A stretch of 64,000 nucleotides of DNA from Candidatus Eiseniibacteriota bacterium (GCA_050733935.1 JBOHUC010000016.1:6088-70087), one strand, 5' to 3'. Numbered from the stretch's first letter, positions 26,170 to 54,388 are shown. A program made the numbers and translations. Notes: generated by a model from the sequence alone, not told the origin.

Positions 26170-26892
26170 ATGAAGATTATGAAGACCACGCTGTGTTTCC
26201 TGTTTGCCGCGCTGGTCGTCGTCGCAGTGGCGCCGTCGGCGTTCGCGGAGACGAAGGTGCCGAACGACATCCCGGTCGGACCGGAGACGGGCCCGAACTG
26301 TGACGTCGAAGGTTACAAGGTCGAGCGCCAGGTGTTCCCGACGCCGGTTCCCATTCCGGACGCGGTTCCCGCGGGCGTCGTCGTGGGCCCGATCTTCCTG
26401 CCCGAGGACGGCGACATCATCGTGGACACGATCATCGACCTCCGCATGTCGCACACGTGGATCGGCGACATCATCGCGGCCGTCGGCTACGACCCGGATT
26501 GCGACGGCCCGGCGGGATTCATCGTGGCGGACCTGCTCTGCCGGCCTCGCGGCACCTCCGCGAGCTCGCCTCCGCCGTGCGGCACGGTCGCCGGATTCGG
26601 CTGCAGCGCGGACCTTCTCGCGGCGAACACGCTCCTCTACAGCGACGAGGCTCTCGCGAAGCCCGCAGACGGCGTCTGCGTGAACCCGATCGCGCCCGGC
26701 TGCTACAAGCCGAGCACCGCGCTCGAGGTCTTCCGCGGACTGCGCAAGGGCGGCTGCTGGTACCTGGCGGTCGCGGACAACGCGGGCGCGGACACCGGCG
26801 CGATCTACGAGTGGTCGGTGCACGTTCGCAACCAGCGTCCGGTGCCGGCCGTTCCGGCGACGATGGGCAAGATCAAGAGCATCTATCGCTAA
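26170..26892 (+). CDS. Secreted stand-alone proprotein-convertase P-domain protein with the conserved C-terminal tail (tag family member A)
   Basis: GGAGGAG SD. Signal peptide MKIMKTTLCFLFAALVVVAVAPSAFA. P-domain signatures SHTWIGDIIAAV and GGCWYLAVADNAGADTGAIYEWSVHV. C-terminus ...PAVPATMGKIKSIYR. Confidence 0.7.
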   Translation: MKIMKTTLCFLFAALVVVAVAPSAFAETKVPNDIPVGPETGPNCDVEGYKVERQVFPTPVPIPDAVPAGVVVGPIFLPEDGDIIVDTIIDLRMSHTWIGDIIAAVGYDPDCDGPAGFIVADLLCRPRGTSASSPPPCGTVAGFGCSADLLAANTLLYSDEALAKPADGVCVNPIAPGCYKPSTALEVFRGLRKGGCWYLAVADNAGADTGAIYEWSVHVRNQRPVPAVPATMGKIKSIYR

Positions 26893-26917
26893 TCGCATCC
26901 CACATCGGGAGCGAATT

Positions 26918-26950
26918 GGGGCGGGGCCTTCGGGTCCCGCCCTTTTGTTT
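26918..26950 (+). terminator. Rho-independent terminator
   Basis: GGCGGGGCC-TTCG-GGTCCCGCC hairpin with a tetraloop, followed by CTTTTGTTTG. Confidence 0.7.
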
Positions 26951-27022
26951 GTCCCATCCGCCGGGCCACGGGCCACGTAGACTCCGGTGACCGAAGTCGA
27001 CGCCTCCTCCCCCGGAGATCCC

Positions 27023-27934
27023 ATGCCGCCCCTTCGCCGCACTTCGACTTGCTCAGGCCCCTTCTCCACGTTGGTGCACGGGCTCGCGCTCGCCCTCCTG
27101 ACGGCAACTGGTGCCGGGCTTTCATTGCAATCCGCGTTCGCGCACGAGTACTGGCTCGCGCCTTCGACGTATGAGCCGACGATGAGCGACACGGTCGTCG
27201 TCCGCGCGTTCGTGGGCACGGGCTTTCGCGGCGAGCGAAGGCCCTTCGCGGCGCCCCGAACCGTGCGCTTCCGGCTCGGCGGAACGAAGGACGTCGACCT
27301 CGCGCAGCTCGCCCTGAACGGCGCGATCGAATGGGCGCGCGTGCGTCCGGCGGACACGCGTGGAGCCGTCGTGAGCTACGAGTCGAACTTCGTTTCGATC
27401 GAGCTTCCCGCGGCCGAGTTCGAGCACTACCTCGAGATCGAGGGGCTCGAGGGAGCGAAGGCCGAGCGGGCCCGCAAGAGGCAAAGTGATCGCCCCGGAC
27501 GCGAGCGCTACCGGCGGGCCTGCAAATCGTGGCTCGCCGGCACGGACATAGCGCGCGTGTCGCGGCCGTCCGGCCTCCCGCTCGAGATCGTTCCGCTCGC
27601 GGATCCGGCCGCGGACGGACTCCTTCGGGTGCGCATTCTCTTCGACGGGAAGCCGCTCGCCGGCGCGCTCGTGCGCGGATGGCGCCAGACGCTCGAAACG
27701 GGAGCTTCACCGCGCTCCGCCGCGACCCGGGACTCGGTCGGGCCATCCGTCGAAGCACGCACGGACGCTGCGGGAGAGGCGACGTTTTCCGCCTCCGCGC
27801 TGGGTGCGGGCGAGTGGCTCCTGAGCACGGTGCACATGATCCCGTCGCGTGTTCCCGGGGAAGCGGACTGGGAGAGCACCTGGGCGTCGCTCACGTTCGC
27901 GCGCCTTGCGCCACCGGGTCGAAAGCCGCGGTGA
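27023..27934 (+). CDS. DUF4198-family periplasmic protein (Ni/Co uptake accessory, NikM/CbiK-like)
   Basis: GGAGA SD before MPPLRR. Signal peptide then the HEYWL motif characteristic of DUF4198. Confidence 0.65.
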   Translation: MPPLRRTSTCSGPFSTLVHGLALALLTATGAGLSLQSAFAHEYWLAPSTYEPTMSDTVVVRAFVGTGFRGERRPFAAPRTVRFRLGGTKDVDLAQLALNGAIEWARVRPADTRGAVVSYESNFVSIELPAAEFEHYLEIEGLEGAKAERARKRQSDRPGRERYRRACKSWLAGTDIARVSRPSGLPLEIVPLADPAADGLLRVRILFDGKPLAGALVRGWRQTLETGASPRSAATRDSVGPSVEARTDAAGEATFSASALGAGEWLLSTVHMIPSRVPGEADWESTWASLTFARLAPPGRKPR

Positions 27935-29025
27935 AGCGAGCGTTGCTGGCGTTGGCCGTGAGTCTCGCGGCCTTCGGGTTCGTGCCCCGCGCTCTGGCGC
28001 ACGATGCGCCCTACAGCTACCTGCGCCTCAATCTTGCGAACGGGCGGCTCTCGGGCTCCCTCACGGCCCACCGCTTCGATCTCGCAAACGAGCTCGGCCT
28101 CGCGGCTCCCGAGTCGCTCGCGAGCGAGGAACGAGTCGATTCGCTCGGACCGATCGTCTTTCCGATTCTCGCCGGGCGCCTCCGGATCGTGGCCGATGGG
28201 GATACGCTCGCGCTTCGGCTCGTGGGGACGGCGGCCGACGACGAGCGGAGCGGGGCGACGTTCGATTTCGAGTCTCCGACACGGGGCCTTCCTTCCCGAA
28301 TCGAAGTCGGAGGGCGACTCTTTCCGTACGATCCCGAGCACGAGACCTACGTCAACCTTTACGTGGGCGATTCGCTCCGGCACCAGGACTTGATCGATCG
28401 CGCACATCCGGTGCTCCGGATCGACACGAGCGGGCGTCCGCGCATCGGAGAGGTCGTCCGGCGGTTCACGGCGGCGGGCATCCACCACATCTTCATCGGG
28501 CCGGATCACATCCTGTTCGTCATCGGCCTCCTTCTCCTCGGCGGATCGATCGGAAAGCTCCTCAAGATCGTGACGGCGTTCACGGTCGCGCACAGCATCA
28601 CGCTCGCGATCGCGAGCCTCGGCGTGTGGAATCCACCGGCCCGGATCGTCGAGCCGCTCATCGCGCTCAGCATCGTCTTCGTGGGCTGCGCGAACCTGGT
28701 CGCGCTGCGCCGGACGGGATCCAGGACCGGGGCGGCGGATGCCCGCGTCGCGCTCGCGTTCGGGTTCGGCTTCGTGCACGGGTTTGGCTTCGCGAACGTG
28801 CTCGCCGAATTCGGACTGCCCCGCGAAGCCCTCGGGTGGGCGCTCTTCTCGTTCAACTTCGGCGTCGAGCTCGGACAGGCGGCGATCGTTCTCGCCGCCG
28901 CACCCGCGCTGGCCTTGCTCCGAAGCTCCGCTCCCCGGCTTGCGGGGCGGGTCGTGCAGGCAGGCTCGGTGGCGGTGATCGCCGCCGGCGCGTGGTGGTT
29001 CTTCGAACGGGTTCGCGGCTCTTAG
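27931..29025 (+). CDS. HupE/UreJ-family membrane protein with an N-terminal periplasmic domain
   Basis: The GTG overlaps the upstream stop (GTGA). HGFGFANV...ELGQ motifs and a polytopic C-terminal half. Confidence 0.7.
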   Translation: MKRALLALAVSLAAFGFVPRALAHDAPYSYLRLNLANGRLSGSLTAHRFDLANELGLAAPESLASEERVDSLGPIVFPILAGRLRIVADGDTLALRLVGTAADDERSGATFDFESPTRGLPSRIEVGGRLFPYDPEHETYVNLYVGDSLRHQDLIDRAHPVLRIDTSGRPRIGEVVRRFTAAGIHHIFIGPDHILFVIGLLLLGGSIGKLLKIVTAFTVAHSITLAIASLGVWNPPARIVEPLIALSIVFVGCANLVALRRTGSRTGAADARVALAFGFGFVHGFGFANVLAEFGLPREALGWALFSFNFGVELGQAAIVLAAAPALALLRSSAPRLAGRVVQAGSVAVIAAGAWWFFERVRGS

Positions 29026-29099
29026 CGGCTTGCGGGCGCGAAGGAAGCGGGCGGCGGAGCAAGGAGCCCCGCCGCCCGTCATGTTCTGCTTCTCGTCCC

Positions 29100-29250
29100 T
29101 GCTTCTCGTTCTACCGTGCGGCAACCTGCTGCGCAGCAACCGGGGGCAACTTGCCCTGGGGCAACCTGCTGCGCAGCAACCTGCTTTCGGTCAACTTGCC
29201 CCGGGGCAACCTGCCGTGCGGCAGCCCGCCTCAGGGAACCTGCTGCTTTC
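29100..29250. repeat. Intergenic tandem/palindromic repeat cluster (REP-like)
   Basis: Two copies each of GGCAACCTGCTGCGCAGCAACC and GGCAACTTGCCCYGGGGCAACCTGC. Palindromic core TGCTGCGCAGCA. Flanked by CTTCTCGTCC direct repeats. The 21-mer ACCTGCTGCGCAGCAACCTGC recurs at 58177-58197. Confidence 0.55.
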
Positions 29251-31241
29251 TACTTCTCGTCCGAGACCGCCGTGGCGCCCGCGGGCGCTGGCTCGGCCCG
29301 GCCGCCCAGGTGCTTCGACAGGAACACCTCCGAAGCCCCGTAGAACTTGAGCCGATTCTCGGGCCGCGCAAAGCCGTGTCCCTCGTCCGCGAACACGATG
29401 TACTCGACGTCGACGCCGCGCTTCTTGAGAGCCTCGACGATCTGGTCGCTCTCCTTCTGCACCACGCGCGGATCGTTCGCCCCCTGCCCGATCAGGATCG
29501 GGGCCTTGAGCTGATCGACCTTGAAGAGCGGCGAGCGTGCCTCGATGTCCTTCCGCTGGACGGGATCCGCGGGATCACCGACGAACGGATACCAGGTGTT
29601 CGCGAGGAACGGCTTCCAGTACGGAGGGAAGCTCTCGATCATGGTCGCGAGGTTGGATGGCCCGACAATGTCGACGCCGCACGCGAACACATCCGGCGTG
29701 AACGTGAGACCGACGAGCGTGGCGTATCCGCCGTAGCTTCCGCCCATGATGCCGACCTTCTTGGGATCGGCGATCCCCTGCTTGACCACCGCGTCCACGG
29801 CATCGAGCAGATCGGTGTGCATCTTGCCCGCGAACTCCTTCTTGGCCGCATTCTTGAAGTTCTTCCCGAATCCGGTCGAGCCGCGATAGTTGACCTGGAG
29901 CACCGCGTAGCCGCGGTTCGCGAGCCACTGGGCCGTGCCGCTGTAGCCCCAGTTGTCACGCGACCAGGGACCGCCGTGCACGTACACGACCATCGGCAGG
30001 TTCTTCGCCGGGATGCCCTGCGGCACCGTCAGGTACACGGGGAGCGAGAGCCCGTCACGCGCCTTCACTTCCATGCCCTTCATGGGAGCGAGCGTGTACG
30101 TCTCGAGGCGCGGCTGAGCGCTGAAGAGAAGCTGTCCCTTCTGCGCGGTCCGATCCCACGCGTACCACTTGACCGGACCGTCGTCCTTCGTGAACGCGGC
30201 GATCCACGTCTTGTCCGCGAGGTCGCGGCTCATGACGGCGAAGTCGCCGTTGTCGAGCTTCGCGATCCCGTCCATGTCCTTCTGGACCGACGGATCGAGC
30301 ACCTGCCAGCGCGTCCTGAGCCGATTGAAGGCCACGGCCAGCGGAGCCTTCGTCTTGAGGTCGACCAGCGGCGTCATGCCCATGTTCGCGTCGGCCGTCG
30401 GATCGTGGGCCATCTGCTTCGTCGCGCCCGATTTCACGTCCACCGCGACGAGAGCGGCCGTGTCGGTCGCGAGATCGGAGACGGCGTAGAGCGTCTTTCC
30501 ATCGGCCGCAACTTCGACCGGCATGAACTGGTCGTCGGGCGCCCAGCTCACGAGCTGGCGCCACTCGGCCTTCGGCGTATCGCGCCACTCGAGAATGCTT
30601 CCGCCCTCGGGCTTCAAGCGCAGCCGACCCACGATCTCGAGCTGCTTGTTGGGAATGTAGCCCCCGATCCCGCCGGGATTCTCCTCGACCAGAGTGATGT
30701 CCCCGGTCTTGAGGTTGAGCTCGTAGACGTCGAAGAGCTGCTTGTTGCGATGGTTGTGCTGAATGAGGCCCCGATCCGGCGACTCCGGCTCATAGGCGAG
30801 CGGAATGACCCGTGTCCCCGCGAGCGGCGTCAGGTTGCGGGTTTCACCGGTGGCGAGGTTCGACACGTACACGTGGAAGTTCTCGTCCCCGCCGGTGTCC
30901 TGCATGTAGATGATGTTCTGGTTGTCGTAGGCCCAGAAGTACTGGCGGATGCCGCGCTTCGGATCGTTCGTCACCTGCTTGTCGTCGTTCTGGCCGATCG
31001 TCTTGACCCAGACCTGCAGCACATCCTTCGTGTCGGCCTTGAGATACGCGAGCTTCGTGCCGTCCGGGGAGATCTCCGGTGTCGCGCGGTCCGGATTGCC
31101 GAACACGACGTCCCGCGGAATGAGCGGCGGGAGATCGGCGCGCACGGGCGCGGCCACGAGGGCCGGCAGGGCGACCGCGAGAACGGCGAGGAGGGAAAGC
31201 CTGGGACGCTGCTTCACGAGCAACCTCCTTTTTCGGGGCAT
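29250..31241 (-). CDS. Secreted S9-family serine peptidase (prolyl oligopeptidase/dipeptidyl-peptidase-like, beta-propeller plus alpha/beta hydrolase)
   Basis: Signal peptide. GGSYGG nucleophile elbow, with Asp/His downstream (FADEGHGF). Confidence 0.8.
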
Positions 31242-31333
31242 GAGGGGGGGTTTGCAACCGGGGCGAACATACTCCTTACGGAGTCCGGGCGTCGAGGTTG
31301 CGGCCCGTGAGATTGCGGCGCGTGAGGCCGGGC

Positions 31334-32767
31334 CTAATACGGCAGGCGGTGCTTTCGCAGCTTCTTGTAGAGGTGGCTCCGCTCGAGGCCGAGGAGCTCG
31401 GCGGCCCGCGCCACGCTTCCCGCCCGCTCGAGGGCGGCTTCGATGGCCGCCTTCTCAGCGGCGTCGAGCTGGGCCCGAAGCGTACCGGGAGCGGCCGGCT
31501 CGGACGCGCCGTCCTCCTCCGGATCGGAAGGATGTGTCTCGTTCGCGGGCGCGGCTTCGACGGTGCGCGCAGAGGCGGTTCCCGGCGCGGAAGAACCGGA
31601 GACTGGAATATGCCGGAGCACATCCGCTTCGGAAATCGTCTCGCCCGGCGTGAGGATGACGAGCCGCTCGAGGAGATTCCGAAGCTCGCGCACGTTCCCC
31701 GGCCAGCTGTGACGCGCGAGCGCCGAGAGCGCCGCGCGGTCGAGACGCCGTGCCTTCCGGCCCATCTGTCGGGCGATGAGCGCGAGGAAGTGCTCGGCGA
31801 GCACGCCCAGATCCTCCGGGCGTTCGCGCAGCGGCGGAACGAGGAGCGGGACCACGTTCAGACGATAGAAGAGATCTTCGCGGAACGATCCGTTGGCGAT
31901 CGCGGCTTCGAGCGGCTGGTTGGTGGCCGCAATCACGCGCACGTCCACGCGCGTCGACTGGTTCGCTCCGACGCGCGTGACGAGCCCGTCCTGGAGGACG
32001 CGCAGGAGCTTTGCCTGCGTGCGCGGGCTCATGTCCCCGATCTCGTCGAGGAACAACGTGCCGCGGTGGGCTTCCTCGAACTTTCCGCGTCGCGACTGGA
32101 CGGCACCGGTGAACGCCCCCTTCTCGTGCCCGAAGAGCTCGCTCTCGACGAGCTCCTCCGGCAGGGCGGCGCAGTTGAGCGCGATAAACGGCTGGTCGCG
32201 GCGGGGCGACAAGTCGTGGAGCGCGCGACCCACGAGCTCCTTCCCCGTTCCGCTCTCTCCCTGGACGAGCACGGTCGCGGTCGTCGGGGCTGCGAGCTCG
32301 ATCCGCTCGATCAGCATGCGGATCGCCTCCGACCGGCCGACGATCGTGCGCCCGAGACCCGCGGACTCGCGGAGGGCCGCGTTCTCGCGCTTGAGTCGCG
32401 CGGACGCGCCCGCGTTGCGCAGCGTGACCAGCACCTGATCGGAGGACAGCGGCTTCTCGAGGAAGTCGAAGGCTCCGAGGCGCGTAGCCTGAACGGCCAT
32501 CTCGATCGTCCCGTGTCCCGACATGAGAACGACCGCGAGACCCGGACGCTCGCGCGACCAGCGTTCGAGGAGCGCGAGCCCGTTCTCGCCGCCGGGAAGC
32601 GCGACGTCCAGCAGCACGAGATCGAGATCGGGCTCCCGCTCGAGCTGGGTCTCCGCAGCAGCCCCATCGCGTGCGGTGAGGACCGTGTAGCTTTCCTTCT
32701 CGAGGAGACGCGTGAGCGACTCGAGAATGCGCGGCTCGTCGTCGACGACCAGAACGAGGTCAGCCAT
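31334..32767 (-). CDS. Sigma-54-dependent two-component response regulator (NtrC family)
   Basis: Receiver LVVDDE...LDVALPG, AAA+ [15 protein letters not shown]-terminal HTH. Confidence 0.85.
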   Translation of the reverse strand: MADLVLVVDDEPRILESLTRLLEKESYTVLTARDGAAAETQLEREPDLDLVLLDVALPGGENGLALLERWSRERPGLAVVLMSGHGTIEMAVQATRLGAFDFLEKPLSSDQVLVTLRNAGASARLKRENAALRESAGLGRTIVGRSEAIRMLIERIELAAPTTATVLVQGESGTGKELVGRALHDLSPRRDQPFIALNCAALPEELVESELFGHEKGAFTGAVQSRRGKFEEAHRGTLFLDEIGDMSPRTQAKLLRVLQDGLVTRVGANQSTRVDVRVIAATNQPLEAAIANGSFREDLFYRLNVVPLLVPPLRERPEDLGVLAEHFLALIARQMGRKARRLDRAALSALARHSWPGNVRELRNLLERLVILTPGETISEADVLRHIPVSGSSAPGTASARTVEAAPANETHPSDPEEDGASEPAAPGTLRAQLDAAEKAAIEAALERAGSVARAAELLGLERSHLYKKLRKHRLPY

Positions 32768-34496: not shown

Positions 34497-34530
34497 GAAC
34501 GCAAGCAGGAGCCGGCGGGTCAGCCGTCCG

Positions 34531-36340: not shown

Positions 36341-37235
36341 TCGCGGGCACCGTCCCATCCGGAACCCGCGGCGGCGTTGTCGCTTCGAGGGCCACGGGAG
36401 ACGCCGACTCGCTCCGTTGCTGATGGCGATGCCGACGGGCCTCGAGCTCGCGATAGAAGAGCGTCCAGCAGGTCGTGAACACGAGGAGCGCGAGCTGAAG
36501 CGGCAGACCGAGCGCGAGATCGAGCAGGAATCCGGGAGAGGGCCCGAGAACGCCGACCGCCGACTGGCGCACGATTCCCACGAGGATCCCGAGCCCGAGG
36601 AAGAGAACGCCCCAGTAGGCGACCATGCCGAGCCAGGCGGTCACGTTGTGCTCGAGCAAATCGCGGCTCTGCCGGAGCGAGCCGAAGAGCCGGCCAGGCC
36701 CGAGGACCGCGGCCTGATTCGCGAACGAGCACGCGATCGCAACGACGAGCCCCGGCAGGACGAGCAGGAAGAAACCGATCTGAAAGAGCGCGTAGACCGC
36801 GACCATCACGGCGATCAAGGACCACGATCGCGCGAGCGCGCGGCTGAACGTCTCGGCGAGATCCAGCCGCCGCCCGTGCGCGAGCGCATCCGCGCGCACG
36901 AGGATCCACGACTCGCCGAGCACGCGCGAGAACACGACGAGCGGAAGAACGCCCATGACGGCGGCGAGCAACCCGCGCTGCCCGGCCACCGGGGAGGCAT
37001 TCGAGGACGACATTCCGATCCCGAGGTGCACCATGATCTCTCCGAGGAGAGTCACGAACGACCAGACCGGAAAGAAGACGATCGCGGGGATGAGAAGGAG
37101 ACCGAACGGATCGCTCCGAAGGCACATGCGCCAGGAGAGACTGGCGACGGCCTGAACGGAACCGAGAGGAAACGGGGCGTCGGCGGACGCGGGCGGCAGC
37201 GCCGCCGGGGTTGCGTCCGGGACGGACGAATTCAC
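36336..37235 (-). CDS. Polytopic membrane protein, hypothetical
   Basis: Multiple TM helices. Stop overlaps the SBP start by 4 nt. Confidence 0.5.
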   Translation of the reverse strand: MNSSVPDATPAALPPASADAPFPLGSVQAVASLSWRMCLRSDPFGLLLIPAIVFFPVWSFVTLLGEIMVHLGIGMSSSNASPVAGQRGLLAAVMGVLPLVVFSRVLGESWILVRADALAHGRRLDLAETFSRALARSWSLIAVMVAVYALFQIGFFLLVLPGLVVAIACSFANQAAVLGPGRLFGSLRQSRDLLEHNVTAWLGMVAYWGVLFLGLGILVGIVRQSAVGVLGPSPGFLLDLALGLPLQLALLVFTTCWTLFYRELEARRHRHQQRSESASPVALEATTPPRVPDGTVPAN

Positions 37236-37374
37236 GCGTGAGGGCTCCTGTCCGTGAGAGCCGGGCGGCTCCCGGCATCGCGGCGGGAACGGGCAAAGCG
37301 CCGCAGTGCGTTGACACTACGAACGAGCGCTGCCTATTGTCAAGCCGATGGCCCGCCCGCCAAGAGCAAAGCGC

Positions 37375-39366: not shown

Positions 39367-41112
39367 ATGAAACTCCGTACTATGGCTGTCACGCTTCTGG
39401 TTCTGTGCAGTGCCTCCGCATCATGGTCCGCCGTTCCACCCGAATTCCGTAGCCGCATGGGCCCGAAGGCTCCACCGGAGTCGAAAGGATTGAAGGGCCC
39501 GAACGCCCCGATGTCCGGAGGCGACACCTTCGGAACCGCAACCGTGATCCCGTCCCTTCCCTACTCGGATACCGGCGGGACGTGCGGCGCGACCGACGAC
39601 TATCCGCCGCCCTGCTGGGGACCGGGCGGTGGGCCGGACGTCGTGTACGTCTACACGCCGCCCGGGAACGAGGCCGTCACGATCAACCTGTGCGGATCGA
39701 GCTATGACACTGGCCTTTACGTGGTCCGGAGCACGGACCTCGCCGTGATCGCGTGCGTGGACGACGCGTGCGGCCTCCAATCGAGGCTCAATGACGTTCC
39801 GATGGTGGCCGGCACTCCGTATTACATTGTCGTGGACGGATACAGCACCGCCTGCGGCGCGTACACGATGACGGTCTCCGGACCGTGCGCGATCGAGTGC
39901 CCGCCCGGGGCGATCGCCGAGGGCGAGCCGGATTGCTTCGACGGATACATCGACAACTACAACGGCGGGTGTAATTCGTTGCCGGCCGTGTTCCAGACGA
40001 TCGCCTGCTCGGACGAACTCGAGGAGATCGTGGTCTGCGGAAAGTACGGCACGTACATCGATCCGGAGTTCGGAGAGTTCCGCGACACGGACTGGTACGA
40101 GATCGTGCTGAGTGAGGGAACGAACATCCAGGTCACGGTCGTCGGCGAGGCCGCCACGCAGATGGCGATCGTCAACGCCACCGGTGGATGCGAGGGGTTC
40201 ACGATCGCGTGCGGCTCGGTCTTCAGCGACCCGTGCATCCCCGGCACGTGCAGCGTGTTCCTCCCCGCCGGAACGTATTGGATTTTCGTCGCGCCGAGCG
40301 TGTTCGCCGGCGTGCCTTGCGGGCGTGACTACGTTCTCAGCGTGCGCGGTTACGAGTGCACGATTCCGCCGCCGCCGCCGCCCATGCAGGGCATGTACGG
40401 GTCGACGCGCGCGGGACAGCTCCTGACGGTCAACACGACGACCGGAGTGGCGAGCTTCCTCGCGAACCTCCCGACGTTCGGCGGCATCGGCGCGTCGGAA
40501 ATCGAGTACGACGTCAACACGAAGGAAGCCTACGTGCAGGGCGTTGATGGCTCGTTCACGATCCAGAAGTTCGACATCGACAGCGGCGCGCCGATCGGCG
40601 GCCCGGTCGGCGTCGGCGCTTCGTTCGCGGGACTCGAGGTCGTCGGATCGCAGCTGTACGGAACCGGACACACGGGTCCGTGCGCGCCGTCGTTCCTTGC
40701 GATCATCGATCCGAACAGCGGTCTTGTGACCCCGCTCGGAACGACCGGGTTCGGCCCCATCACAGGACTCGCGTACGACGACACCGGCGGCGACCTCTAC
40801 GGCCTCACGGGATGCGCCACTGGAAACTCGCTGCTCGTTCGCATCGACCGGGTGACGGGAGCCGGAACGCCCGTCGGCGGCGGAACCGGGTTCGAGGGAG
40901 GCAGCCTCGAGTTCGGCGAGGACGGCGTCCTGTACGGCGGCGGATCGAACGAGAACGGCGGGCGGTTCTACCGGATCGACACCACGACCGGCGCCGGAAC
41001 GCTCATCGGACCGTCGGGCTTCCCGAATCTCACCGGGCTCACGCTCGTGCCGAAGACAACGCCCGTGACCGAGAAGTCGTGGGGCGCGATCAAGGCGAAG
41101 TACCACCGGTAG
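39367..41112 (+). CDS. Secreted protein with two PPC (pre-peptidase C-terminal) domains, a beta-propeller-like region and the conserved C-terminal tail (tag family member B)
   Basis: Signal peptide. PPC motifs DVVYVYTPPGNEAVTINL...YYIVVDGYSTACGAYTMTVSG and DTDWYEIVLSEG. C-terminus LVPKTTPVTEKSWGAIKAKYHR. Confidence 0.75.
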   Translation: MKLRTMAVTLLVLCSASASWSAVPPEFRSRMGPKAPPESKGLKGPNAPMSGGDTFGTATVIPSLPYSDTGGTCGATDDYPPPCWGPGGGPDVVYVYTPPGNEAVTINLCGSSYDTGLYVVRSTDLAVIACVDDACGLQSRLNDVPMVAGTPYYIVVDGYSTACGAYTMTVSGPCAIECPPGAIAEGEPDCFDGYIDNYNGGCNSLPAVFQTIACSDELEEIVVCGKYGTYIDPEFGEFRDTDWYEIVLSEGTNIQVTVVGEAATQMAIVNATGGCEGFTIACGSVFSDPCIPGTCSVFLPAGTYWIFVAPSVFAGVPCGRDYVLSVRGYECTIPPPPPPMQGMYGSTRAGQLLTVNTTTGVASFLANLPTFGGIGASEIEYDVNTKEAYVQGVDGSFTIQKFDIDSGAPIGGPVGVGASFAGLEVVGSQLYGTGHTGPCAPSFLAIIDPNSGLVTPLGTTGFGPITGLAYDDTGGDLYGLTGCATGNSLLVRIDRVTGAGTPVGGGTGFEGGSLEFGEDGVLYGGGSNENGGRFYRIDTTTGAGTLIGPSGFPNLTGLTLVPKTTPVTEKSWGAIKAKYHR

Positions 41113-41359: not shown

Positions 41360-43102
41360 ATGAAGCTCCGCACCGCGGGTCCTGCACTCTTTACACTCGT
41401 GGCACTGTGCACTGCGTCCGCTGCATGGTCCGACGTTCCTCCCGAGTTCCGCAGCCGCGAAGGAACGAAGCCCTCGACGGAATCCAAGGGTCAGAAGGGA
41501 TCGATGGCTCCACTGTCGGGCGGAGACACGATCCCGAACGCGACGGTGATCCCGGCACTCCCTTACGTGGATTCAGGCGGAACGTGCGGCGCCAACGACG
41601 ACTACCCACCCGTCTGCTGGGTCACGCCCGGCGCTCCCGACGTCGTCTACAAGTACACGCCCCCCACCAACGGAATTGTGACCATCAGCCTGTGCAATTC
41701 GAACTACGACACTGCACTGCTCCTCGTTCGGGGGACGGACTTCGTCGTGCTCAGGTGCGCGGACGACGTGTGCGGCCTGCAGTCGAGGATCGAGAACGTC
41801 CCGCTCATCGGCAACATTCCGTACTACATCATCGTGGACGGCTGGGGGGAGAGCTGCGGGGAGTATCAGCTCACGGTCGCGGGCCCGTGCGAGCTCGAAT
41901 GCCCGCCCGGTGCCATCGCCGAGGGCGAGCCGGATTGCGCCAGGGACTACGTGGACAACTACGACGGCGGATGCGTCTCGGTGCCGGCGGTATTCAAGTC
42001 GATCGCCTGCTCCGACGAGGAGATCGTGGTCTGTGGACGATTCGGCACCTACCGGGATGCGATCGGACCGCTCCGTGACACGGACTGGTACGAGATCGTC
42101 CTCGACAGCGACGCCAACCTCGAGGTGTCGGTTGTCGCCGAGGCTCCGACACAACTCGCCATTCTGAATGCCGCCGGCGGCTGCGTTGGCTTCACGGTCG
42201 CATGCGGCTCGGTCTTTGCAGAGGCGTGCATTACGGGAACCTGCAGCGCGTTCCTGTCGAAGGGAACGTACTGGATCTTCGTCTCTCCGAATGCCTTCGG
42301 CGGTGTGCCCTGTGGCACCGAGTACGATCTCCGGATCCGAGGATACGAGTGCTCGCTCCCACCGCCTCCCCCACCCGGACAGGGAATGTACGGATCGACG
42401 CGATCCGGACAGCTCCTGTCCGTGAACACTTCGACCGGGGCCGCAAGCCTCCTCGCGAACCTTCCGACCTTCGGCTCCATCGGCGCGGCTGAGATCGAGT
42501 ACGACGGGAACACGAAGATCGCCTATCTCCAGGGAGTCGACGGATCGTTCGCGATGCAGAAGTTCGACATCGACAGCGGCGTTCCGTTCGGAAGTCCGGT
42601 GGACGTGGGTGCGGCGTTCGACGGGCTCGAGGTCGTTGGTTCCCAGCTCTATGGAACCGGGCACACCGGGCCGTGCGCGCCGTCGTTCCTCGCGACGATC
42701 GATCCGAGCTCGGGCGCGGTCAACCCGATCGGCTCGACCGGGCTCGGGCCCATCACGGGGCTCGCGTTCGACGACGGGAAGGGCGTGCTGTACGGGATCA
42801 CGGGCTGCGCCAGCGGGAATTCGCTGCTCGTCAACCTCGATCGCACGACGGGAGCCGCAACGGTCGTCGGTCCCACCGGATTCGAAGCCGCAAGTCTCGA
42901 GTTCGGGGAGGACGGTGTCCTGTACGGCGGTGGATCAACCGAGGATGGCGGGCGCCTCTATCGGATCGACCTCGGAACCGGAGCCGGGACGCTCATCGGC
43001 CCGTCGGGCTTCCCGAGCCTCACGGGGCTCACGCTCGTGCCGAAGACGACGCCGGTGACGCAGCGGTCGTGGGGCGCCATCAAGGCGAAGTACCACCGGT
43101 AG
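41360..43102 (+). CDS. Tandem paralog of the preceding gene (tag family member C)
   Basis: Same architecture, collinear similarity over the full length. C-terminus LVPKTTPVTQRSWGAIKAKYHR. Confidence 0.75.
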   Translation: MKLRTAGPALFTLVALCTASAAWSDVPPEFRSREGTKPSTESKGQKGSMAPLSGGDTIPNATVIPALPYVDSGGTCGANDDYPPVCWVTPGAPDVVYKYTPPTNGIVTISLCNSNYDTALLLVRGTDFVVLRCADDVCGLQSRIENVPLIGNIPYYIIVDGWGESCGEYQLTVAGPCELECPPGAIAEGEPDCARDYVDNYDGGCVSVPAVFKSIACSDEEIVVCGRFGTYRDAIGPLRDTDWYEIVLDSDANLEVSVVAEAPTQLAILNAAGGCVGFTVACGSVFAEACITGTCSAFLSKGTYWIFVSPNAFGGVPCGTEYDLRIRGYECSLPPPPPPGQGMYGSTRSGQLLSVNTSTGAASLLANLPTFGSIGAAEIEYDGNTKIAYLQGVDGSFAMQKFDIDSGVPFGSPVDVGAAFDGLEVVGSQLYGTGHTGPCAPSFLATIDPSSGAVNPIGSTGLGPITGLAFDDGKGVLYGITGCASGNSLLVNLDRTTGAATVVGPTGFEAASLEFGEDGVLYGGGSTEDGGRLYRIDLGTGAGTLIGPSGFPSLTGLTLVPKTTPVTQRSWGAIKAKYHR

Positions 43103-44079: not shown

Positions 44080-44099
44080 GATTGCGCGGGCCGCGCCCG

Positions 44100-49221: not shown

Positions 49222-49229
49222 GGCCTCGC

Positions 49230-49547
49230 CTATCCCTTGAGCAGGTTCACTTCGTCCACGTACACGGTCTCGCGCGCGCGGAACACGTTGATGATGATCG
49301 CAAGCCCGACCGCGACCTCAGCGGCCGCCACGACCATCACGAAGAACACGAACACCTGGCCGTCCAGGTTGTCGAGCGCCCGCGCGAACGCCACGAGCGT
49401 GAGATTCGCGGCGTTGAGCATCAACTCGATGCACATGAAGATGACGAGCGCGTTTCGCCGAACGAGCACTCCGGTCACGCCGATCACGAACAGTGCCGCA
49501 GCGAACACGAGGTACCAGCTCGTCGGGACGACTTCGGGCAGGCTCAC
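49230..49547 (-). CDS. nuoK: NADH-quinone oxidoreductase subunit K
   Basis: GTG start with [35 protein letters not shown]. 105 aa. Confidence 0.8.
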
Positions 49548-50191
49548 GATTGCCCCTCCTGCGCTTCGGGCGAGATGGGGCCCGTGTGGACCGCTTCCCC
49601 GGAGACGGGCGCCGGGCGCGCTCCGGACGTCGGAGCCGCGGTCGTGCGGGGTGACGCGGGCGCGGGACGCGAGGCCACGAGATCGCTCTTCCGCTTCGCG
49701 AGCACGACCGCTCCGATGATGCCGACGAGCAGGATGAGAGAGGTCACTTCGAACGGGAACAGATAGTCCGTGTAGAGGCGAAGCCCGATCGCTTCCGTGT
49801 TCCCGACGCGGGCGACCACGTCGGCCGTGTCCCGTCCCGAGGGGCCGAGCGCCCACGGTTTCCGGATCATCGCGACGAACAGCGCGGCGAGCGCGATGCC
49901 GAATCCCCATCCCAGAACCCGTCGGGCCGCGTGATGGAGCCCGTCGTCGATGTCGTGGCGCAGATTGAGCAGCATGATCACGAAGATGAACAGCACCATG
50001 ATGGCGCCGGCATAGACGACGACCTGCACCGCGGCAATGAACGGCGCATTGAGGAGCACGTACATGCCACCCAGACTCACGAACGTGAGCACGAGATAGA
50101 GCGCCGACACGACCGGGTTCCGCTGGATGACGACCATGAGGGCCGCGACGAGCCCGATCACGGCGAAGGCGACGAAGAAATACGGCGTCAC
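49544..50191 (-). CDS. nuoJ: NADH-quinone oxidoreductase subunit J
   Basis: GTG overlaps the nuoH stop. ND6-like TM core plus a P/A/S-rich tail. Confidence 0.8.
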
Positions 50192-51198
50192 CGGTTCATC
50201 CACAGGTAGCGCACGAGGCCCGTCGCCATGACGTTCGCGAGCGCGATCGGGAGCAGCACCTTCCAGCCGAACGCCATGAGCTGGTCGTAACGCAGGCGCG
50301 GCCAGGTCCAGCGCACCCACACGAAGAAGAAGCACAGGAACGTCCACTTGAGCGTGAACCAAAGCACGCCCCAGAGCGCCGCCGGGAGGAACGGCGGGAC
50401 GGGGCCGTGCCAGCCGCCCAGGAACAGCGTCGTGCAGATGCCCGCGATCGCCATCATGTTCATGTACTCGGCCATGTAGAAGATCGCGAACTTCATCGAC
50501 GAGTACTCGAGGTGATATCCGGCCACGATCTCGGACTCCGCCTCCGCGAGATCGAACGGCGAGCGGTTGCACTCCGCGAGCATCGTGACCAGGAAGATGA
50601 GAAACGCGATCGGCTGGGAGAGCGCGAACCAGACCTTCGACTGCGCCTCGACGATCGCCACCGTCGAGAGCGATCCGGTCGCGAGGACGACCGACACCAC
50701 CGCGAGCCCCATCCCGAGCTCGTAACTGATCATCTGGGCGGCCGCGCGCAGACCGCCAAGCAGGCTGTACTTGTTGTTCGACGACCACCCCGCGAGCACG
50801 ACCGTGTAAACGCTGAGCGAGGACATGGCGAGGAAGAGGAGGATCCCGATGTTCACGTCGCTGATGATCGCGTTCGGCGCGACGGGGACGATCGCGACCG
50901 AGACGAACGCGGGCACGAACGCGATGAACGGCGCGAGGAGGTACACCGCGTGGTGCGCCTCCTGCGCCATCACGTCTTCCTTGAAGAAGAGCTTGATCAC
51001 ATCGGCGAGCGGCTGGAGGAGCCCGTACGGCCCCACGCGGTTCGGACCGGGACGGAATTGAATGTGGGCCGCCACCTTGCGCTCGACCCACGTGTAGAAC
51101 GGCAGGATCCCGAGGAACACGCCCGGAACGAGCAGGATACCGACCGCCGTCCACAGCCAGCGCTGGGTCTCCGGGCTCATTCCTTGAAGGAAGGACAT
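50188..51198 (-). CDS. nuoH: NADH-quinone oxidoreductase subunit H
   Basis: ND1 family, 336 aa. Confidence 0.85.
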
Positions 51199-51221
51199 CC
51201 GTGTCGGGGCTCGAGCGGCGG

Positions 51222-52553
51222 TCAGACCGCGGCCGTGGCCCGCTCCTCAAACGCCCGCAGCTCGTCCCGCCTGCGGTTCGCGATGCAGCGCTTCTCGCGC
51301 ACGTGGAACTCGAACTCGGGACGGAAGCGGTCGATCACGGACATGACCGGCATGGCCGCGGCGTCCCCGAGCGCGCAGAAGGACTTCCCGAGGATCATGT
51401 CGCACATGCGGTAGAGATGATCGATCTGCTCCATCCGCGCCTCGCCGGCCTCGAACTGGAGCAGGATGCTCTCCATCCAGTGCGTTCCCTCACGGCACGG
51501 CGTGCACTTGCCGCACGACTCGTGGCGGTAGAAGCGCGTGATGTTGAGCGCGAGATCGACCATGCACGTCTGCTCGTCGATGAACACACAACCGCCCGAG
51601 CCGAGGAGCGTCCCCGCGGCCGCGCACGACTCGAAGTCGAGGCCGACGTCCAAGTGCTCGGTCGTGAGCATCGGGACGGACGAGCCGCCGGGGATGATCG
51701 CCTTGAGCTTCATTCCGGACTTCATGCCGCCCGCGTACTCTTCGAGCAGCGTGCGGATCGGAAGGCCCATCGGAATCTCGTAATTCGCGGGACGGTTGAC
51801 CGGTCCCGACACCGACATGACCTTCGTGCCGGGACTCTTCTCGGTCCCCCACGCGCGGAACCACTCGGCGCCGCGAAGCAGGATGTCGGGCACGTTCATG
51901 ATCGTCTCGACGTTGTTGACGACCGTCGGACACGCGTACAGGCCTTCGACCGCGGGGAACGGCGGCTTGAGACGTGGATTCCCGCGCTTCCCCTCGAGCG
52001 AGTTCAGGAGGGCCGTCTCCTCGCCGCAAATGTAGGCGCCCGCCCCCATGTGCACGTGCGCGTCGAGATCGAATCCCGAGCCCAGGATGTTCTTCCCCAG
52101 GTAGCCGGCTGCGCGCGCCTCCTCGAGCGCCTTCTGGAGGATCGGCTCGAGGAACATGAACTCACCGCGCACGTAGAGGTAGCAGGCGTGCGCGTTGATC
52201 GCGTAGCTCGTGAGGAGGATGCCCTCGAGGAGCTGATGCGGATTCTTGAGCATCAGCTCGTGATCCTTGAACGTCCCCGGCTCCGACTCGTCGGCGTTGA
52301 TGACGAGATACTTGGGCTTCGGCGAGTCCTTGGGGACGAACGACCACTTCTGTCCGGTCGGGAAGCCGGCGCCGCCACGACCCCGCAAACCCGAGGCCTT
52401 GACCGCGTCGATGACTGCGGCCGGCGCCATCTTCTCGCCCACGACTTTCTTCGCGGCCTGATAGCCGTCGTAGTGCGTGCGGTAGCCCTCGAGGCCGGTG
52501 AGCCCCGGGGCGTCGATCGCACGGAACAGGTTCTTGTCCCTCTTCAGCGGCAT
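51222..52553 (-). CDS. nuoF: NADH-quinone oxidoreductase subunit F (NADH-binding, FMN, 4Fe-4S)
   Basis: GRGGAGFPTG FMN/NADH motif, SCGKCTPCREG cluster motif. Confidence 0.85.
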   Translation of the reverse strand: MPLKRDKNLFRAIDAPGLTGLEGYRTHYDGYQAAKKVVGEKMAPAAVIDAVKASGLRGRGGAGFPTGQKWSFVPKDSPKPKYLVINADESEPGTFKDHELMLKNPHQLLEGILLTSYAINAHACYLYVRGEFMFLEPILQKALEEARAAGYLGKNILGSGFDLDAHVHMGAGAYICGEETALLNSLEGKRGNPRLKPPFPAVEGLYACPTVVNNVETIMNVPDILLRGAEWFRAWGTEKSPGTKVMSVSGPVNRPANYEIPMGLPIRTLLEEYAGGMKSGMKLKAIIPGGSSVPMLTTEHLDVGLDFESCAAAGTLLGSGGCVFIDEQTCMVDLALNITRFYRHESCGKCTPCREGTHWMESILLQFEAGEARMEQIDHLYRMCDMILGKSFCALGDAAAMPVMSVIDRFRPEFEFHVREKRCIANRRRDELRAFEERATAAV

Positions 52554-52575
52554 GCGCGTCGTCCCTGGAATGGCG

Positions 52576-53064
52576 TCACGAGAGGGAATCGAGGATCCGG
52601 TCCACTTCGGACTCGGTGAGGTTGTAGTGGTAGCGCTCCTCGTTGATCTGGAGCATCGGGGCCATGCCGCACGCGGCCAGGCACTCGACTTTCTTCAGGG
52701 TGAACTTCCCGTCCTTCGTCGTCTCGCCGGCTCCGATCCCGAGCTTCTTCTCGAGGTGCTTGACGATTCGCTCCGCGCCCATGAGCGAGCAGGAGAGCGT
52801 GCAGCACACCTGGACGATGTGCCGGCCCGTCGGCGCCAGGTTGTACATCGTGTAGAAACTCGCGACCGCGGCGACGTCCGCCTCGGAGACCTCGAGCGAC
52901 TTCGCGACCAGCTCGATCGCCTCCTCGGAAATGAATCCGAAGCGCTTCTGCGCGAGCCAGAGGGCAGGCATGATCGCGGAATCGCGCTGATCAGACGGGT
53001 AGCGCGCGAGATACTCCTTGATCCGCGCCTGGTCGGCCGCGTCGAACGCAAGCGGCTTCCCCAC
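52576..53064 (-). CDS. nuoE: NADH-quinone oxidoreductase subunit E (2Fe-2S)
   Basis: CCTLSC...C(x3)C cluster motifs. Start ambiguous: GTG at 53064, or GTG at about 53100 close to the nuoA stop. Confidence 0.75.
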   Translation of the reverse strand: MGKPLAFDAADQARIKEYLARYPSDQRDSAIMPALWLAQKRFGFISEEAIELVAKSLEVSEADVAAVASFYTMYNLAPTGRHIVQVCCTLSCSLMGAERIVKHLEKKLGIGAGETTKDGKFTLKKVECLAACGMAPMLQINEERYHYNLTESEVDRILDSLS

Positions 53065-53096
53065 CCGAACGAGGTCGAGCCCGACCTTCGCGGTTT

Positions 53097-53456
53097 TCAA
53101 TCCCACTCGAGCGCCCCCTTCTTCCACACGTAGACGTAGCCGACGAAGAGAATCGCGACGAACAGGAACATCTCGACCAGCGCGAGCAGGCCGAGCTTGT
53201 CGAACGCGACCGCCCACGGATAGAGAAAGACGATCTCGATGTCGAACAGGATGAAGAGGACGCCGATCAGGTAGAACTTGACCGAGAACCGCTCGCGCGC
53301 GCTCCCGAGCGGCAGCACGCCGCACTCGTAGGGGGAGAGGTCCACCGCCGTCTTCCGCGGCCGGCCGAGGAACCTCGAGAGCACGATGAGCGCCGCCGAA
53401 AGTCCCAGAGCGAGCAGGGTCAGGATCGCAATCGGCAGGTAGGACGACAGATCCAA
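53097..53456 (-). CDS. nuoA: NADH-quinone oxidoreductase subunit A
   Basis: ND3 family, 119 aa, [12 protein letters not shown]...[12 protein letters not shown]. Confidence 0.8.
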
Positions 53457-53671
53457 GCGATTCTCCGGTCCGATGGTCGGCGCGCCCGAGGACCGGGCCG
53501 CACCTCGCGAGAAAGGTGGGATTCCGAGCGCGAAATCTAGCGGGCAAGCGGGGTTAGGTCAAGCTTCTGCCCGCTTGTGCGGACCGAGCCTCCGGTCGTA
53601 AACTCAGCGCCCATTCATTGGCAGGCCCTTCGGGGTCCATGGCACTTTCCTTTTTTTCCGGAGATCCCCCC

Positions 53672-54388
53672 ATGAGATCGCTGCGTTTCACGCTGGCCGC
53701 CGCACTCGTGTTCCTGGCTCTTCCTACGATCGCTTCCGCACAGACCTCACCTTGTTGCGTCGTCCCGGACAACGGGTCGGGCACGGCCAATCATCCACCG
53801 AATTGCGTGACCGGCTACCAGGGGCCGATGGAGATCGTCGACGGGCTCATGCCGGTCGGCACGGTCCAGATTGCCGCGAAGCTCCACTCGTTCACGGGGC
53901 TCGTTCAGGTTCCGGGCGGATCGCTCGGCGGCATGAAGGAGAACTGGAACGCGACACTCGACATGGCGATGGCCGGAACGGGTGGCTTTGCCGCCTACAA
54001 CCGGTTCCTTCAGATTCCGGTGGTCGGCGAGTCGCACTCCGCGCCGCGCGTTCCGTTCGCGATCACGCAGCCGTTCGCAACGACGCTCTGGACGCTCCAG
54101 GGCCAGATCACGCTCGACCCCGACTTCGACCTGCTGCGCGTCACGGCGGGCGACGGGTTCGGCATGCCGAGCCCCGGGAACACGACGTTCATCTCGAGCG
54201 GCGGAGGATGGGCGGTCGACAGCTTCTTCGACATCACGTACCGGATCGACTTCGTCGGAAACCCGGCCGGTCCCTTCGCCGGACGGTCGGGCAGCACGAC
54301 CCGCACGGCCCGGTTCGACATGTGCCACGAGTTCCCGACGCCGGCGGCTCCCGCGAGCTGGGGTGCCGTGAAGGCGTTCTATCGCTAG
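53672..54388 (+). CDS. Secreted protein with an SFFDITYRIDF-type domain and the conserved C-terminal tail (tag family member D)
   Basis: GGAGA SD. Signal peptide MRSLRFTLAAALVFLALPTIASA. The domain is homologous to the three repeats in the 5417-8485 protein. C-terminus PTPAAPASWGAVKAFYR. Confidence 0.65.
   Translation: MRSLRFTLAAALVFLALPTIASAQTSPCCVVPDNGSGTANHPPNCVTGYQGPMEIVDGLMPVGTVQIAAKLHSFTGLVQVPGGSLGGMKENWNATLDMAMAGTGGFAAYNRFLQIPVVGESHSAPRVPFAITQPFATTLWTLQGQITLDPDFDLLRVTAGDGFGMPSPGNTTFISSGGGWAVDSFFDITYRIDFVGNPAGPFAGRSGSTTRTARFDMCHEFPTPAAPASWGAVKAFYR

Follow-up and report, generated by a model that had tools for sequence, protein, structure and literature searches.

A short C-terminal tail on unrelated exported proteins of Eisenbacteria and allied phyla appears to be a hitherto undescribed cell-envelope address label

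The window analysed here is a 64 kb stretch of DNA from a Candidatus Eiseniibacteriota metagenome-assembled genome (MAG), in which four genes, A to D, encode proteins that end in one short peptide tail. All four open reading frames (ORFs) are present where an earlier note on this DNA had placed them, and their tags were located by motif search. Protein A (240 aa; 26170..26892, + strand) consists of a signal peptide, a P-domain-like beta sandwich, a coil linker and the tail, as judged from its ORF and an AF2 model, and closes with PVPAVPATMGKIKSIYR (26839..26889, +), a W-to-M variant followed by the stop codon at 26890-26892. Protein B (581 aa; 39367..41112, +) joins a signal peptide to a PPC-like double module, a DUF4394/DUF6923-like propeller (profile search) and the tail, and its tag, TTPVTEKSWGAIKAKYHR (41056..41109, +), has one added His ahead of the terminal Arg. 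Protein C (580 aa; 41360..43102, +), with the tag TTPVTQRSWGAIKAKYHR (43046..43099, +), is a tandem paralogue of B at 71% identity. In protein D (238 aa; 53672..54388, +) a signal peptide precedes an eight-stranded up-and-down beta barrel without a Pfam family, which a coil linker joins to the tail in its canonical form, PTPAAPASWGAVKAFYR (54335..54385, +). Judged by eye and with a crude score, A to D start with what look like Sec signal peptides, which agrees with the earlier note. That note had also described four unrelated secreted proteins with one tail; the shared tail stands, but B and C are paralogues, and the carriers in the window represent three independent cargo families (A, B/C and D).

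Three further genes on the minus strand bear on the interpretation, and all had been correctly recognized before. A large exported protein (5417..8485) has a C-terminal domain (CTD) of the type A / FlgD_ig-like kind linked with type IX secretion systems (T9SS), scoring 23.5 bits with TIGR04183 (cut-off 23) and 25.9 bits with FlgD_ig, and a lipase-like protein (60696..62309) has a FlgD_ig/T9SS-type CTD (FlgD_ig 40 bits; TIGR04183 21.1 bits). A YkuD L,D-transpeptidase gene (25060..25671; 113 bits) lies divergently upstream of A.

The tail common to A to D is approximately 17 residues long, P-V/T-P-V/T-E/R-x-x-S/T-W-G-x-I/V-K-x-L-Y-R-stop, and has two parts, an extended Pro/Val/Thr-rich spacer (P-[VT]-P-[VT]-[ER]-x-x) and a core of nine to ten residues ([ST]-W-G-x-[IVL]-K-[AS]-[LM]-Y-R) at the protein's last position. 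Only seven residues follow W-G, and the basic residues are one terminal Arg and a Lys at position -5. A six-frame regular-expression search of the window for [WM]-G-x-[IVL]-K-x-x-Y-(x)-R returned four matches, each abutting a stop codon; the mean count in shuffled windows was 0.0 (300 mononucleotide and 300 triplet-block shuffles), and dinucleotide-preserving shuffles gave an expectation of 0.00 for the DNA pattern matching the tail of D. As the earlier note had claimed, A to D have no hydrophobic transmembrane segment past the motif, the stop codon coming immediately next. Over its last 10 residues the hydrophobic moment (0.44) does not exceed that of shuffled controls (0.36 ± 0.17).

Carriers were gathered with a DNA pattern for the tail over species-representative genomes, and the resulting counts are lower bounds. 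The tail occurs at ORF ends in at least 119 genome stretches, and among the matches listed its hosts, from several poorly known phyla, are mostly Eisenbacteria (37 loci by label), with Krumholzibacteriota (4 labelled Krumholzibacteri-), Latescibacterota (4 labelled Latescibacter-), Zixibacteria (1 labelled Zixiibacteriota) and MAGs labelled Fibrobacter(aceae) (6) or Gemmatimonad- (3). Among these matches, the genome labels suggest that the tail is confined to Eisenbacteria and allied FCB-group phyla. The position of the tail is close to fixed: of 153 core motifs among the matches listed in the genome loci, 140 run straight into a stop, 10 have one further residue before it and just 3 are internal. 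A DNA pattern with a sense codon in place of the stop recovered only unrelated matches.

The search pattern itself demands W, G, K and R, which makes the 100% conservation of these residues in the genome loci a circular result; only the A, B/C and D families give unbiased figures. Protein D is identical to the deposited protein P0001, and the same motif closes 106 of its 120 best homologues. Protein A is 100% identical to P0121 and has a weak P_proprotein match (17.5 bits, under cut-off); its W-to-M variant is common only to its two closest relatives, P0122 and P0123, and [ST]WGxVKxIYR is the ending of most other A homologues. B, C and their representative P0153 alone have the extra His (YHR). 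In the D and A families W, G, K and Y show no or almost no variation, with domain identities that go down to about 50% and lower (37% in A). Most D and A family members found by domain homology terminate in Arg, and a minority in Q, E or N; Lys at this position is rare (for example, P0220). At the DNA level the tail uses all four codons for Gly and Arg, both Ser families and all three stops. Codon choice is free while the peptide residues are constant, which argues for selection on the peptide and not on the DNA.

The cargo is diverse. With the tail trimmed off before BLAST, at least 152 carriers fall into at least 87 unrelated clusters, so the tail is not the property of a single paralogue family. 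Carrier domains are typically extracellular or surface-associated (beta-helix/pectate lyase, NHL, PD40, LTD, CBMs, thioester domain, phosphoesterase, choice-of-anchor W and DNRLRE), and most cargos are soluble folds. Of 140 full-length carriers among the matches listed, approximately 121 begin with sequence that a crude score rates as signal-peptide-like, and a lipobox-like motif is present in only 18 of the 121. Some tail genes form tandem arrays, with 7 in locus L118, 4 in L103 and 3 in L028. Among the carriers is one choice-of-anchor W protein.

Known models do not describe the tail. Searches with the full A to D proteins gave no Pfam or NCBIfam match to the tail at E≤1, bare tail peptides gave none at E≤10, and 15 tail peptides had no match at E≤10 among the curated sorting-signal HMMs of NCBIfam release 20.0. 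Positive controls were detected in the same NCBIfam run: TIGR04174 scored 30.6 and 27.2 bits on the IPTL-CTERM controls, PEP-type models matched the PEP-CTERM-like control, and the T9SS CTD control was found slightly under its cut-off. No Pfam or NCBIfam family is common to the 85 cluster representatives, and we found no paper mentioning such a motif. The tail looks like a so far undescribed address label for the cell envelope, although it speaks against such a role that every established sorting signal is, to our knowledge, longer.

What the label may stand for is suggested by the domains that take its place. FlgD_ig CTDs replace the tail in the D homologues P0091, P0096, P0097, P0103 and P0106, so that the coexistence of the tail with T9SS-type CTDs, proposed from the window, extends to alternation within one family. 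The B/C module has 8150 homologues at E≤0.001; of its best 150 representatives, approximately 20 have the tail, approximately 21 a T9SS-like CTD and approximately 18 a dockerin-like end, and there are also 4 with an IPTL-CTERM-like end and 1 with a PEP-CTERM-like end. A distant A homologue, P0152, has an IPTL-CTERM domain. All three cargo families hence have homologues with recognized sorting domains at the C-terminus, and by this sequence comparison the tail occupies the same architectural slot as the T9SS CTD and the exosortase-type signals.

Structure prediction is consistent with a tail that stands apart from its cargo. In the AF2 model of A the domain blocks mostly have a pLDDT of approximately 90, with a dip to 60-78 around residues 111-150, followed by a coil at 222-231 and a helix at 232-239. 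For two unrelated cargos the models run from a confident domain through a coil to a short undocked helix with a pLDDT of about 55-60, a low-confidence prediction as far as the helix is concerned. In these models the tail is predicted to lie outside the cargo fold. The beta-signal of outer-membrane proteins was considered and rejected, given that the last residue is Arg and not aromatic, a Pro-rich coil separates the tail from the domain, a helix is predicted and the cargos are mostly soluble.

Among described systems, the tripartite signals (IPTL-CTERM TIGR04174, PEP-CTERM, GlyGly-CTERM, MYXO-CTERM and LPXTG) resemble the tail in being short C-terminal motifs on many unrelated exported proteins, often preceded by a Pro/Thr-rich region. 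The tail likewise recurs on several unrelated proteins of one genome, with three families within 64 kb, and its start, P-[VT]-x-x-x-[ST]-W-G-x-[IV], is similar to the IPTLxxWG signature, for example AIPTVSQWGLVV in P0205. However, the Pro-to-Trp spacing is one residue longer in the tail, and TIGR04174 does not match it. Small-signal sorting systems depend on a transmembrane segment. In tripartite signals the motif has to be followed by a transmembrane helix and then an Arg-rich cluster of residues (bioRxiv 10.1101/2023.06.07.544157), whereas the tail has no transmembrane segment and a single terminal Arg with no basic cluster.

The surroundings of the tail genes offer little guidance to a partner. 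The earlier note had suggested a dedicated processing or attachment machinery, but no candidate for such an enzyme recurs in the neighbourhoods of the 119 loci, where the only recurrent neighbours are CTD-bearing cargo (39 of 119 loci), Ser/Thr kinases and ABC transporters. A proposed link to YkuD and the Braun lipoprotein fares no better: YkuD is absent from the recurrent neighbour clusters of the 119 loci and adjoins A only, and L,D-transpeptidases are ubiquitous.

Mere coincidence, or the functionless heritage of one paralogue family, has the paralogy of B and C in its favour and can practically be dismissed: chance matches number 0.0, the cargo clusters at least 87, conservation acts at the peptide level with free codons, and the position is near-exclusively C-terminal. 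The tail could also be a covalent peptidoglycan-attachment motif, joined to meso-DAP by a YkuD-type L,D-transpeptidase, possibly through the Lys five from the end, a residue that does not vary within the A and D families as gathered by domain homology. The Braun lipoprotein (Lpp) ends in K-Y-R-K, and its terminal Lys is cross-linked to peptidoglycan meso-DAP by YkuD-family enzymes. Both it and the tail are short basic/aromatic endings on exported proteins, K-x-x-Y-R is loosely like the Lpp end, and a YkuD gene does adjoin A. Nevertheless, Lpp attaches via a terminal Lys that the tail mostly replaces with Arg, the signal peptides of A to D are type I-like, and the scarcity of lipobox-like motifs shows the carriers to be mostly not lipoproteins. 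The cargo (pectate lyases, CBMs and adhesin-type modules) moreover suggests a location beyond the outer membrane and not its periplasmic face. Together with the ubiquity and non-recurrence of YkuD, this makes peptidoglycan attachment very improbable.

Another system for comparison is the T9SS CTD, a folded beta sandwich of roughly 40-100 residues that is cleaved by PorU. These domains (TIGR04183 / PF18962; FlgD_ig-like PF13860) and the tail both sit at the extreme C-terminus of otherwise unrelated Sec-exported FCB-group proteins, are found together in genomes and can stand in for each other on given cargo families. The tail might therefore be a T9SS signal in minimal form, handled by the very machinery that reads the FlgD_ig/type A CTDs (for example, by PorV or the SprA/Sov translocon) and not by one of its own. 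In line with this, the tail lineages also encode T9SS-type CTD cargo, both in the window and adjoining the tail loci; CTDs too end in a hydrophobic stretch and then a basic residue; and CTD length varies, with short functional forms known in Prevotella (PMC11969387). However, motifs B, D and E and a number of beta strands are preserved even in 'short' CTDs (PMC11969387), whereas the tail of 10-17 residues has none of these motifs and is predicted to be a short helix, not a beta sandwich. TIGR04183, PF18962 and PF13860 do not match it, although a CTD control was detected, slightly under its cut-off, and one machine gives no clear reason for two so different signals on paralogous cargo; we regard a minimal T9SS signal as unlikely. 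Equally, the tail may not direct transport at all, but act as a non-covalent docking peptide ('mini-dockerin') or a quality-control or proteolysis tag. Its binder would then be some common protein of the periplasm or surface, for example a scaffold, a chaperone or a protease that processes C-termini. A strict free C-terminus is typical of peptide-in-groove recognition, the tail is predicted to be exposed on a flexible linker, and the same cargo modules elsewhere bear dockerin-like repeats, just as dockerin-type and choice-of-anchor modules are alternative C-terminal anchors used by lineage on one cargo module. Yet dockerins are Ca-binding, about 60-70 residues long and have a cohesin partner, whereas the tail has no known partner, and no conserved receptor or protease candidate lies near the tail genes of the 119 loci. 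C-terminal recognition domains such as PDZ favour hydrophobic final residues, not Arg, and the tail interchanges mainly with true sorting domains, which leaves docking or proteolysis a rather improbable role.

We favour, as reasonably probable, a modular, lineage-restricted C-terminal sorting or anchoring tag on Sec-exported proteins of many folds. In such a scheme the cargo would cross the inner membrane via Sec, and the flexible tail, away from the folded cargo, would be recognized by its free C-terminal end. The recognizing partner would be a putative envelope component, either a receptor or translocon or a processing enzyme, that would steer the cargo to the outer membrane or cell surface or retain it there. 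The tail lacks both a folded domain and any segment that spans a membrane, and its reader therefore cannot act like an intramembrane sortase. More tentatively, the tail may be the label of a new envelope pathway, parallel to the T9SS, that reads a free C-terminal peptide of approximately 17 residues. If so, Eisenbacteria and their allies would have a receptor, translocon or sortase-like enzyme that exports Sec-delivered proteins across the outer membrane or fixes them there, and it would be unlike every known C-terminal sorting system in needing no folded CTD and no membrane-spanning segment.

Four exported proteins encoded in the window, a high-GC stretch (66–70% G+C) of a Candidatus Eiseniibacteriota metagenome-assembled genome, share a C-terminal tail of ~17 residues with the core [ST]-W-G-x-[IVL]-K-[AS]-[LM]-Y-R-stop behind a Pro/Val/Thr-rich spacer. 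All four ORFs named in the earlier note are present, and their translations end in …PVPAVPATMGKIKSIYR (A, 26170–26892), …TTPVTEKSWGAIKAKYHR (B, 39367–41112), …TTPVTQRSWGAIKAKYHR (C, 41360–43102) and …PTPAAPASWGAVKAFYR (D, 53672–54388), each followed by a stop. A six-frame regular-expression search of the 64 kb found the motif four times, with a stop codon immediately after each, against a mean count of 0.0 in 600 shuffles of the window, and the expected number of occurrences of the D-tail DNA pattern is 0.00. A and D are identical (100%) to the deposited proteins ACREOU_01785 and ACREOU_01895, respectively, and D is also encoded in a second assembly, GCA_975254425.1. Type I signal peptides were read by eye from the sequence (MKIMKTTLCFLFAALVVVAVAPSAFA/E, MKLRTMAVTLLVLCSASASWSA/V and MRSLRFTLAAALVFLALPTIASA/Q). 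The description of these as four unrelated secreted proteins holds for the unrelatedness of the cargo, the exported part ahead of the tail, but not for the number: B and C are tandem paralogues (71% identity) and A, B/C and D have no mutual similarity outside the tail detectable by BLAST clustering, hence the window contains three independent cargo families. In A (tail at 26839–26889) and its two closest relatives, P0122 and P0123, the near-invariant Trp is replaced by Met with the remaining tag intact, in A by two base changes (TGG to ATG), which may provide a natural test of whether the Trp is essential.

Beyond the window, the tail census rests on DNA scans with the degenerate pattern W-G-x-h-K-x-x-Y-R-stop, which is present in at least 119 stretches of species-representative genomes. 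The shared tail is confirmed and considerably extended, with related genomes carrying it as well. According to record titles, these loci comprise at least 37 from Candidatus Eisenbacteria, at least 6 from Fibrobacter/Fibrobacteraceae, at least 4 each from Krumholzibacteriota/-iia and Latescibacteria/-ota, at least 3 from Gemmatimonadota/-ales, at least 1 each from Zixiibacteriota and Effluviviaceae, at least 56 labelled only ‘bacterium’ and at least 7 with other names; L077, L106 and L132, among the last, were rejected as chance matches with no real ORF. Across all loci, a six-frame scan gave at least 165 tail-ending ORFs among the matches listed. Searching 42-residue C-termini against a database of 5.8 billion proteins returned 16 word-index candidates and 2 matches. 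The pattern also matched 22 stretches in a viral-contig collection, ~14 of which are long ORFs ending in …[ST]WGxhKxxYR-stop behind a Pro/Val/Thr-rich spacer. Canonical-tail ORFs lie on the IMG/VR stretches L006, L010, L012, L014, L015, L017–L019 and L022–L024, and such contigs are either misclassified or prophage-bearing FCB-group contigs, or phages borrowing the host tag.

The tail is terminal and is conserved as a peptide. Among the matches listed, the core motif is followed by R and a stop in 140 cases and by R, one further residue and a stop in 10, and is internal in only 3; with the stop directly after the core in those 140 cases, the proposed lack of a transmembrane segment after the motif is borne out. 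In a control in which the stop was replaced by the 16 G-starting sense codons, the 43 viral matches belonged to unrelated phage proteins, and the spacer was missing from every one. Position weights from 145 tails among the matches listed give the consensus (C/G)-P-[VT]-P-[VT]-[ER]-x-[ST]-[TS]-W-G-x-[VIL]-K-[AS]-[LM]-Y-R-COOH, in which conservation of W, G, K and R is circular for the locus set because the search pattern fixed these four. Unbiased conservation figures come from families gathered via their cargo domains: the motif ends 106 of the 120 best D homologues, at domain identities down to ~50%, with K invariant and W, G and Y each at least 90% conserved in these 120, and nearly all of 31 close A homologues end in [ST]WGxVKxIYR. 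All four codons are used for Gly and for Arg in the tail, as are both Tyr codons, both Ser families (AGY and TCN) and, after it, all three stop codons; judged by this codon usage, selection acts on the tail peptide. A Cys lies at most 20 residues ahead of the core in 54% of carriers (proteins ending in the tail), often abutting the P-x-P spacer (…C-P-T-P-T-R…), whereas in MYXO-CTERM-type signals the Cys is invariant.

With the last 20 residues trimmed, at least 152 carriers form at least 87 BLAST clusters, so the tail is not confined to one paralogue family, in line with the earlier note. No Pfam or NCBIfam family is common to more than two of 85 cluster representatives, whose domains include NHL, PD40, right-handed beta-helix/pectate lyase, lamin-tail, phosphoesterase, laminin-G-like, thioester, DPPIV-N, CBM, choice-of-anchor W and DNRLRE, among others, and from its sequence the cargo looks extracellular. 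Among the matches listed, a crude hydrophobicity score assigns a signal-peptide-like N-terminus to ~121 of 140 full-length carriers, and 18 of these ~121 have a lipobox-like motif. Tail genes often occur in tandem arrays, with seven, four and three copies in stretches L118, L103 and L028, respectively. The seven L118 paralogues (L118:1649–7850, from the MAG ‘bacterium F1F2.bin.167’) are ~225 aa each and often end in …K-G-[IL]-F-R; an eighth copy has the degenerate end …HDEIKDLYR, lacking W-G, and is possibly a snapshot of tag decay.

AlphaFold2 models built with family alignments place the tail outside the folded domain. D is modelled as an eight-stranded up-and-down beta barrel (pLDDT >90 at residues 30–220) followed by coil (220–228) and a helix (229–237, pLDDT ~55), and A as a P-domain-like beta sandwich (pLDDT ~90 in most blocks, lower at ~111–150) followed by coil (222–231) and a helix (232–239, pLDDT ~56–61). 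Both models, of unrelated folds, thus show the tail as a short, low-confidence helix undocked from the domain, and a flexible tag fits these models better than a structural element. An amphipathic helix was considered and rejected, given that the last 10 residues have a hydrophobic moment that does not significantly exceed that of shuffles; hence we do not claim membrane binding.

As proposed, the tail falls outside existing sorting-signal models. NCBIfam gave no match to the full A–D proteins at E ≤ 1, and their Pfam matches, all weak and sub-threshold, were to cargo domains and never over the tail; ten bare tail peptides gave 0 matches at E ≤ 10 in NCBIfam and Pfam, and neither did five further tails match in a run whose positive controls were detected (TIGR04174 on IPTL-type ends at 30.6, 27.2 and 18.6 bits, cut-off 20.5; PEP-type models on a PEP-like end; Por_Secre_tail/FlgD models on a CTD, the T9SS-type C-terminal domain). 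A literature search, including full text, on the tail motif, Eisenbacteria secretion and sorting signals in these phyla did not find the tail. Three elements define the small sorting signals (bioRxiv 10.1101/2023.06.07.544157), namely a signature motif, a transmembrane segment and a cluster of Arg residues, and the tail shares the signature motif only. Its start, P-[VT]-x-x-x-[ST]-W-G-x-[IV], resembles the IPTLxxWG signature (e.g. AIPTVSQWGLVV…), although its P and W lie one residue further apart and K-x-L-Y-R-stop stands where IPTL-CTERM has its transmembrane helix. The resemblance suggests, as a lead only, shared origin or convergent recognition. A P-T-x-S-x-W-G-h-h signature opens the IPTL-CTERM of the A and B/C homologues P0205, P0271, P0192, P0204 and P0152.

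The same cargo also occurs with known C-terminal sorting domains. In the D homologues P0091, P0096, P0097, P0103 and P0106, a FlgD_ig/T9SS-type CTD takes the terminal place of the tail. For the N-terminal PPC-like module of B/C, which has 8150 relatives, C-termini of the best 150 representatives were classed by a regular-expression heuristic with HMM spot checks: ~20 have the tail, ~21 a T9SS-like CTD, ~18 dockerin-like repeats, 4 IPTL-CTERM-like ends and 1 a PEP-CTERM-like end. A distant A homologue, P0152, has an IPTL-CTERM by both annotation and score. The suggested coexistence of the tail with T9SS-type CTDs is upheld, with two CTD proteins encoded in the window and CTD-bearing proteins as the commonest neighbours of tail genes (39 of at least 119 loci). 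Three D homologues with a duplicated domain (P0082, P0095 and P0105) end in …F-E-D-G-F-E-S-G-D-T-S-x-W-S-x-x-V-P, which looks like a third alternative C-terminus on D cargo, seemingly another conserved terminal motif.

All-against-all BLAST of ORFs from the at least 119 loci gave recurrent neighbour clusters of T9SS-CTD cargo, Ser/Thr kinase-TPR proteins, ABC ATPases, PD40 proteins and response regulators, and no protease, transpeptidase or outer-membrane barrel recurred beside tail genes; ORF listings of the flanks of the L118, L103 and L028 arrays showed no obvious partner. Immediately 3′ of A (26987–29022) lie genes for a DUF4198 protein and a HupE/UreJ-type membrane protein, a nickel/cobalt-uptake-like pair, and beyond them an S9 peptidase, an NtrC-type two-component pair and a family-5 solute-binding protein, none of which recurs beside tail genes elsewhere. 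In L134, a 1353-aa Peptidase_C25 (gingipain/PorU-family) protein with a T9SS type A CTD (L134:2533–6591) is encoded ~1 kb downstream of a tail gene (L134:670–1539); it was rejected as PorU (71 bits, NCBIfam cut-off 420).

The C-terminal position of the tail, its modularity, the export signals, the interchange with sorting domains, the peptide-level selection and the lineage restriction are established here, and the best-supported reading, which we consider probable, is an undescribed C-terminal sorting or anchoring tag. An envelope component would read the tail via its free C-terminal end, and this reading would decide the final location of the cargo, which its domains suggest to be the outer membrane, cell surface or medium. 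A T9SS mini-signal would accord with the many CTD-bearing neighbours, but T9SS CTDs, short Prevotella forms included, retain motifs B, D and E (PMC11969387) and the tail has none of them; we consider this reading unlikely. A collapsed CTD remnant was rejected, given no HMM similarity and a spacing that differs from FlgD_ig CTDs, and for the same reasons the MAFFT pairing of the tail W…G…YR with W-D-G…G-x-Y-F-Y-R of FlgD_ig CTDs was treated as an alignment artefact. A tag serving only for docking or quality control, which the undocked tail of the models would also suit, seems improbable. Action of an L,D-transpeptidase, suggested in the earlier note by the YkuD gene at 25060–25671(−) and a likeness to Braun lipoprotein, is very improbable and that link is not sustained, because the last residue is mostly Arg, YkuD is not a recurrent neighbour at the at least 119 loci and the cargo looks extracellular.

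New envelope machinery has time and again been discovered through C-terminal sorting signals, with sortases, exosortases, rhombosortases, myxosortases and the T9SS among the examples. The tail has the hallmarks from which those discoveries started, given that it is C-terminal, occurs on many unrelated cargos per genome, is lineage-restricted and swaps with known anchors. It is a new type in this known class: in contrast to all described C-terminal sorting signals it lacks both a transmembrane segment and a folded domain, and therefore no known system can process it. Should its function be confirmed, its length of only ~17 residues would make it easy to use as a portable tag. If the tail is a sorting tag, it would serve as a simple new feature for annotation pipelines, mark the secreted or surface proteome in several uncultured phyla of soil and sediment, and imply an undiscovered reader protein.
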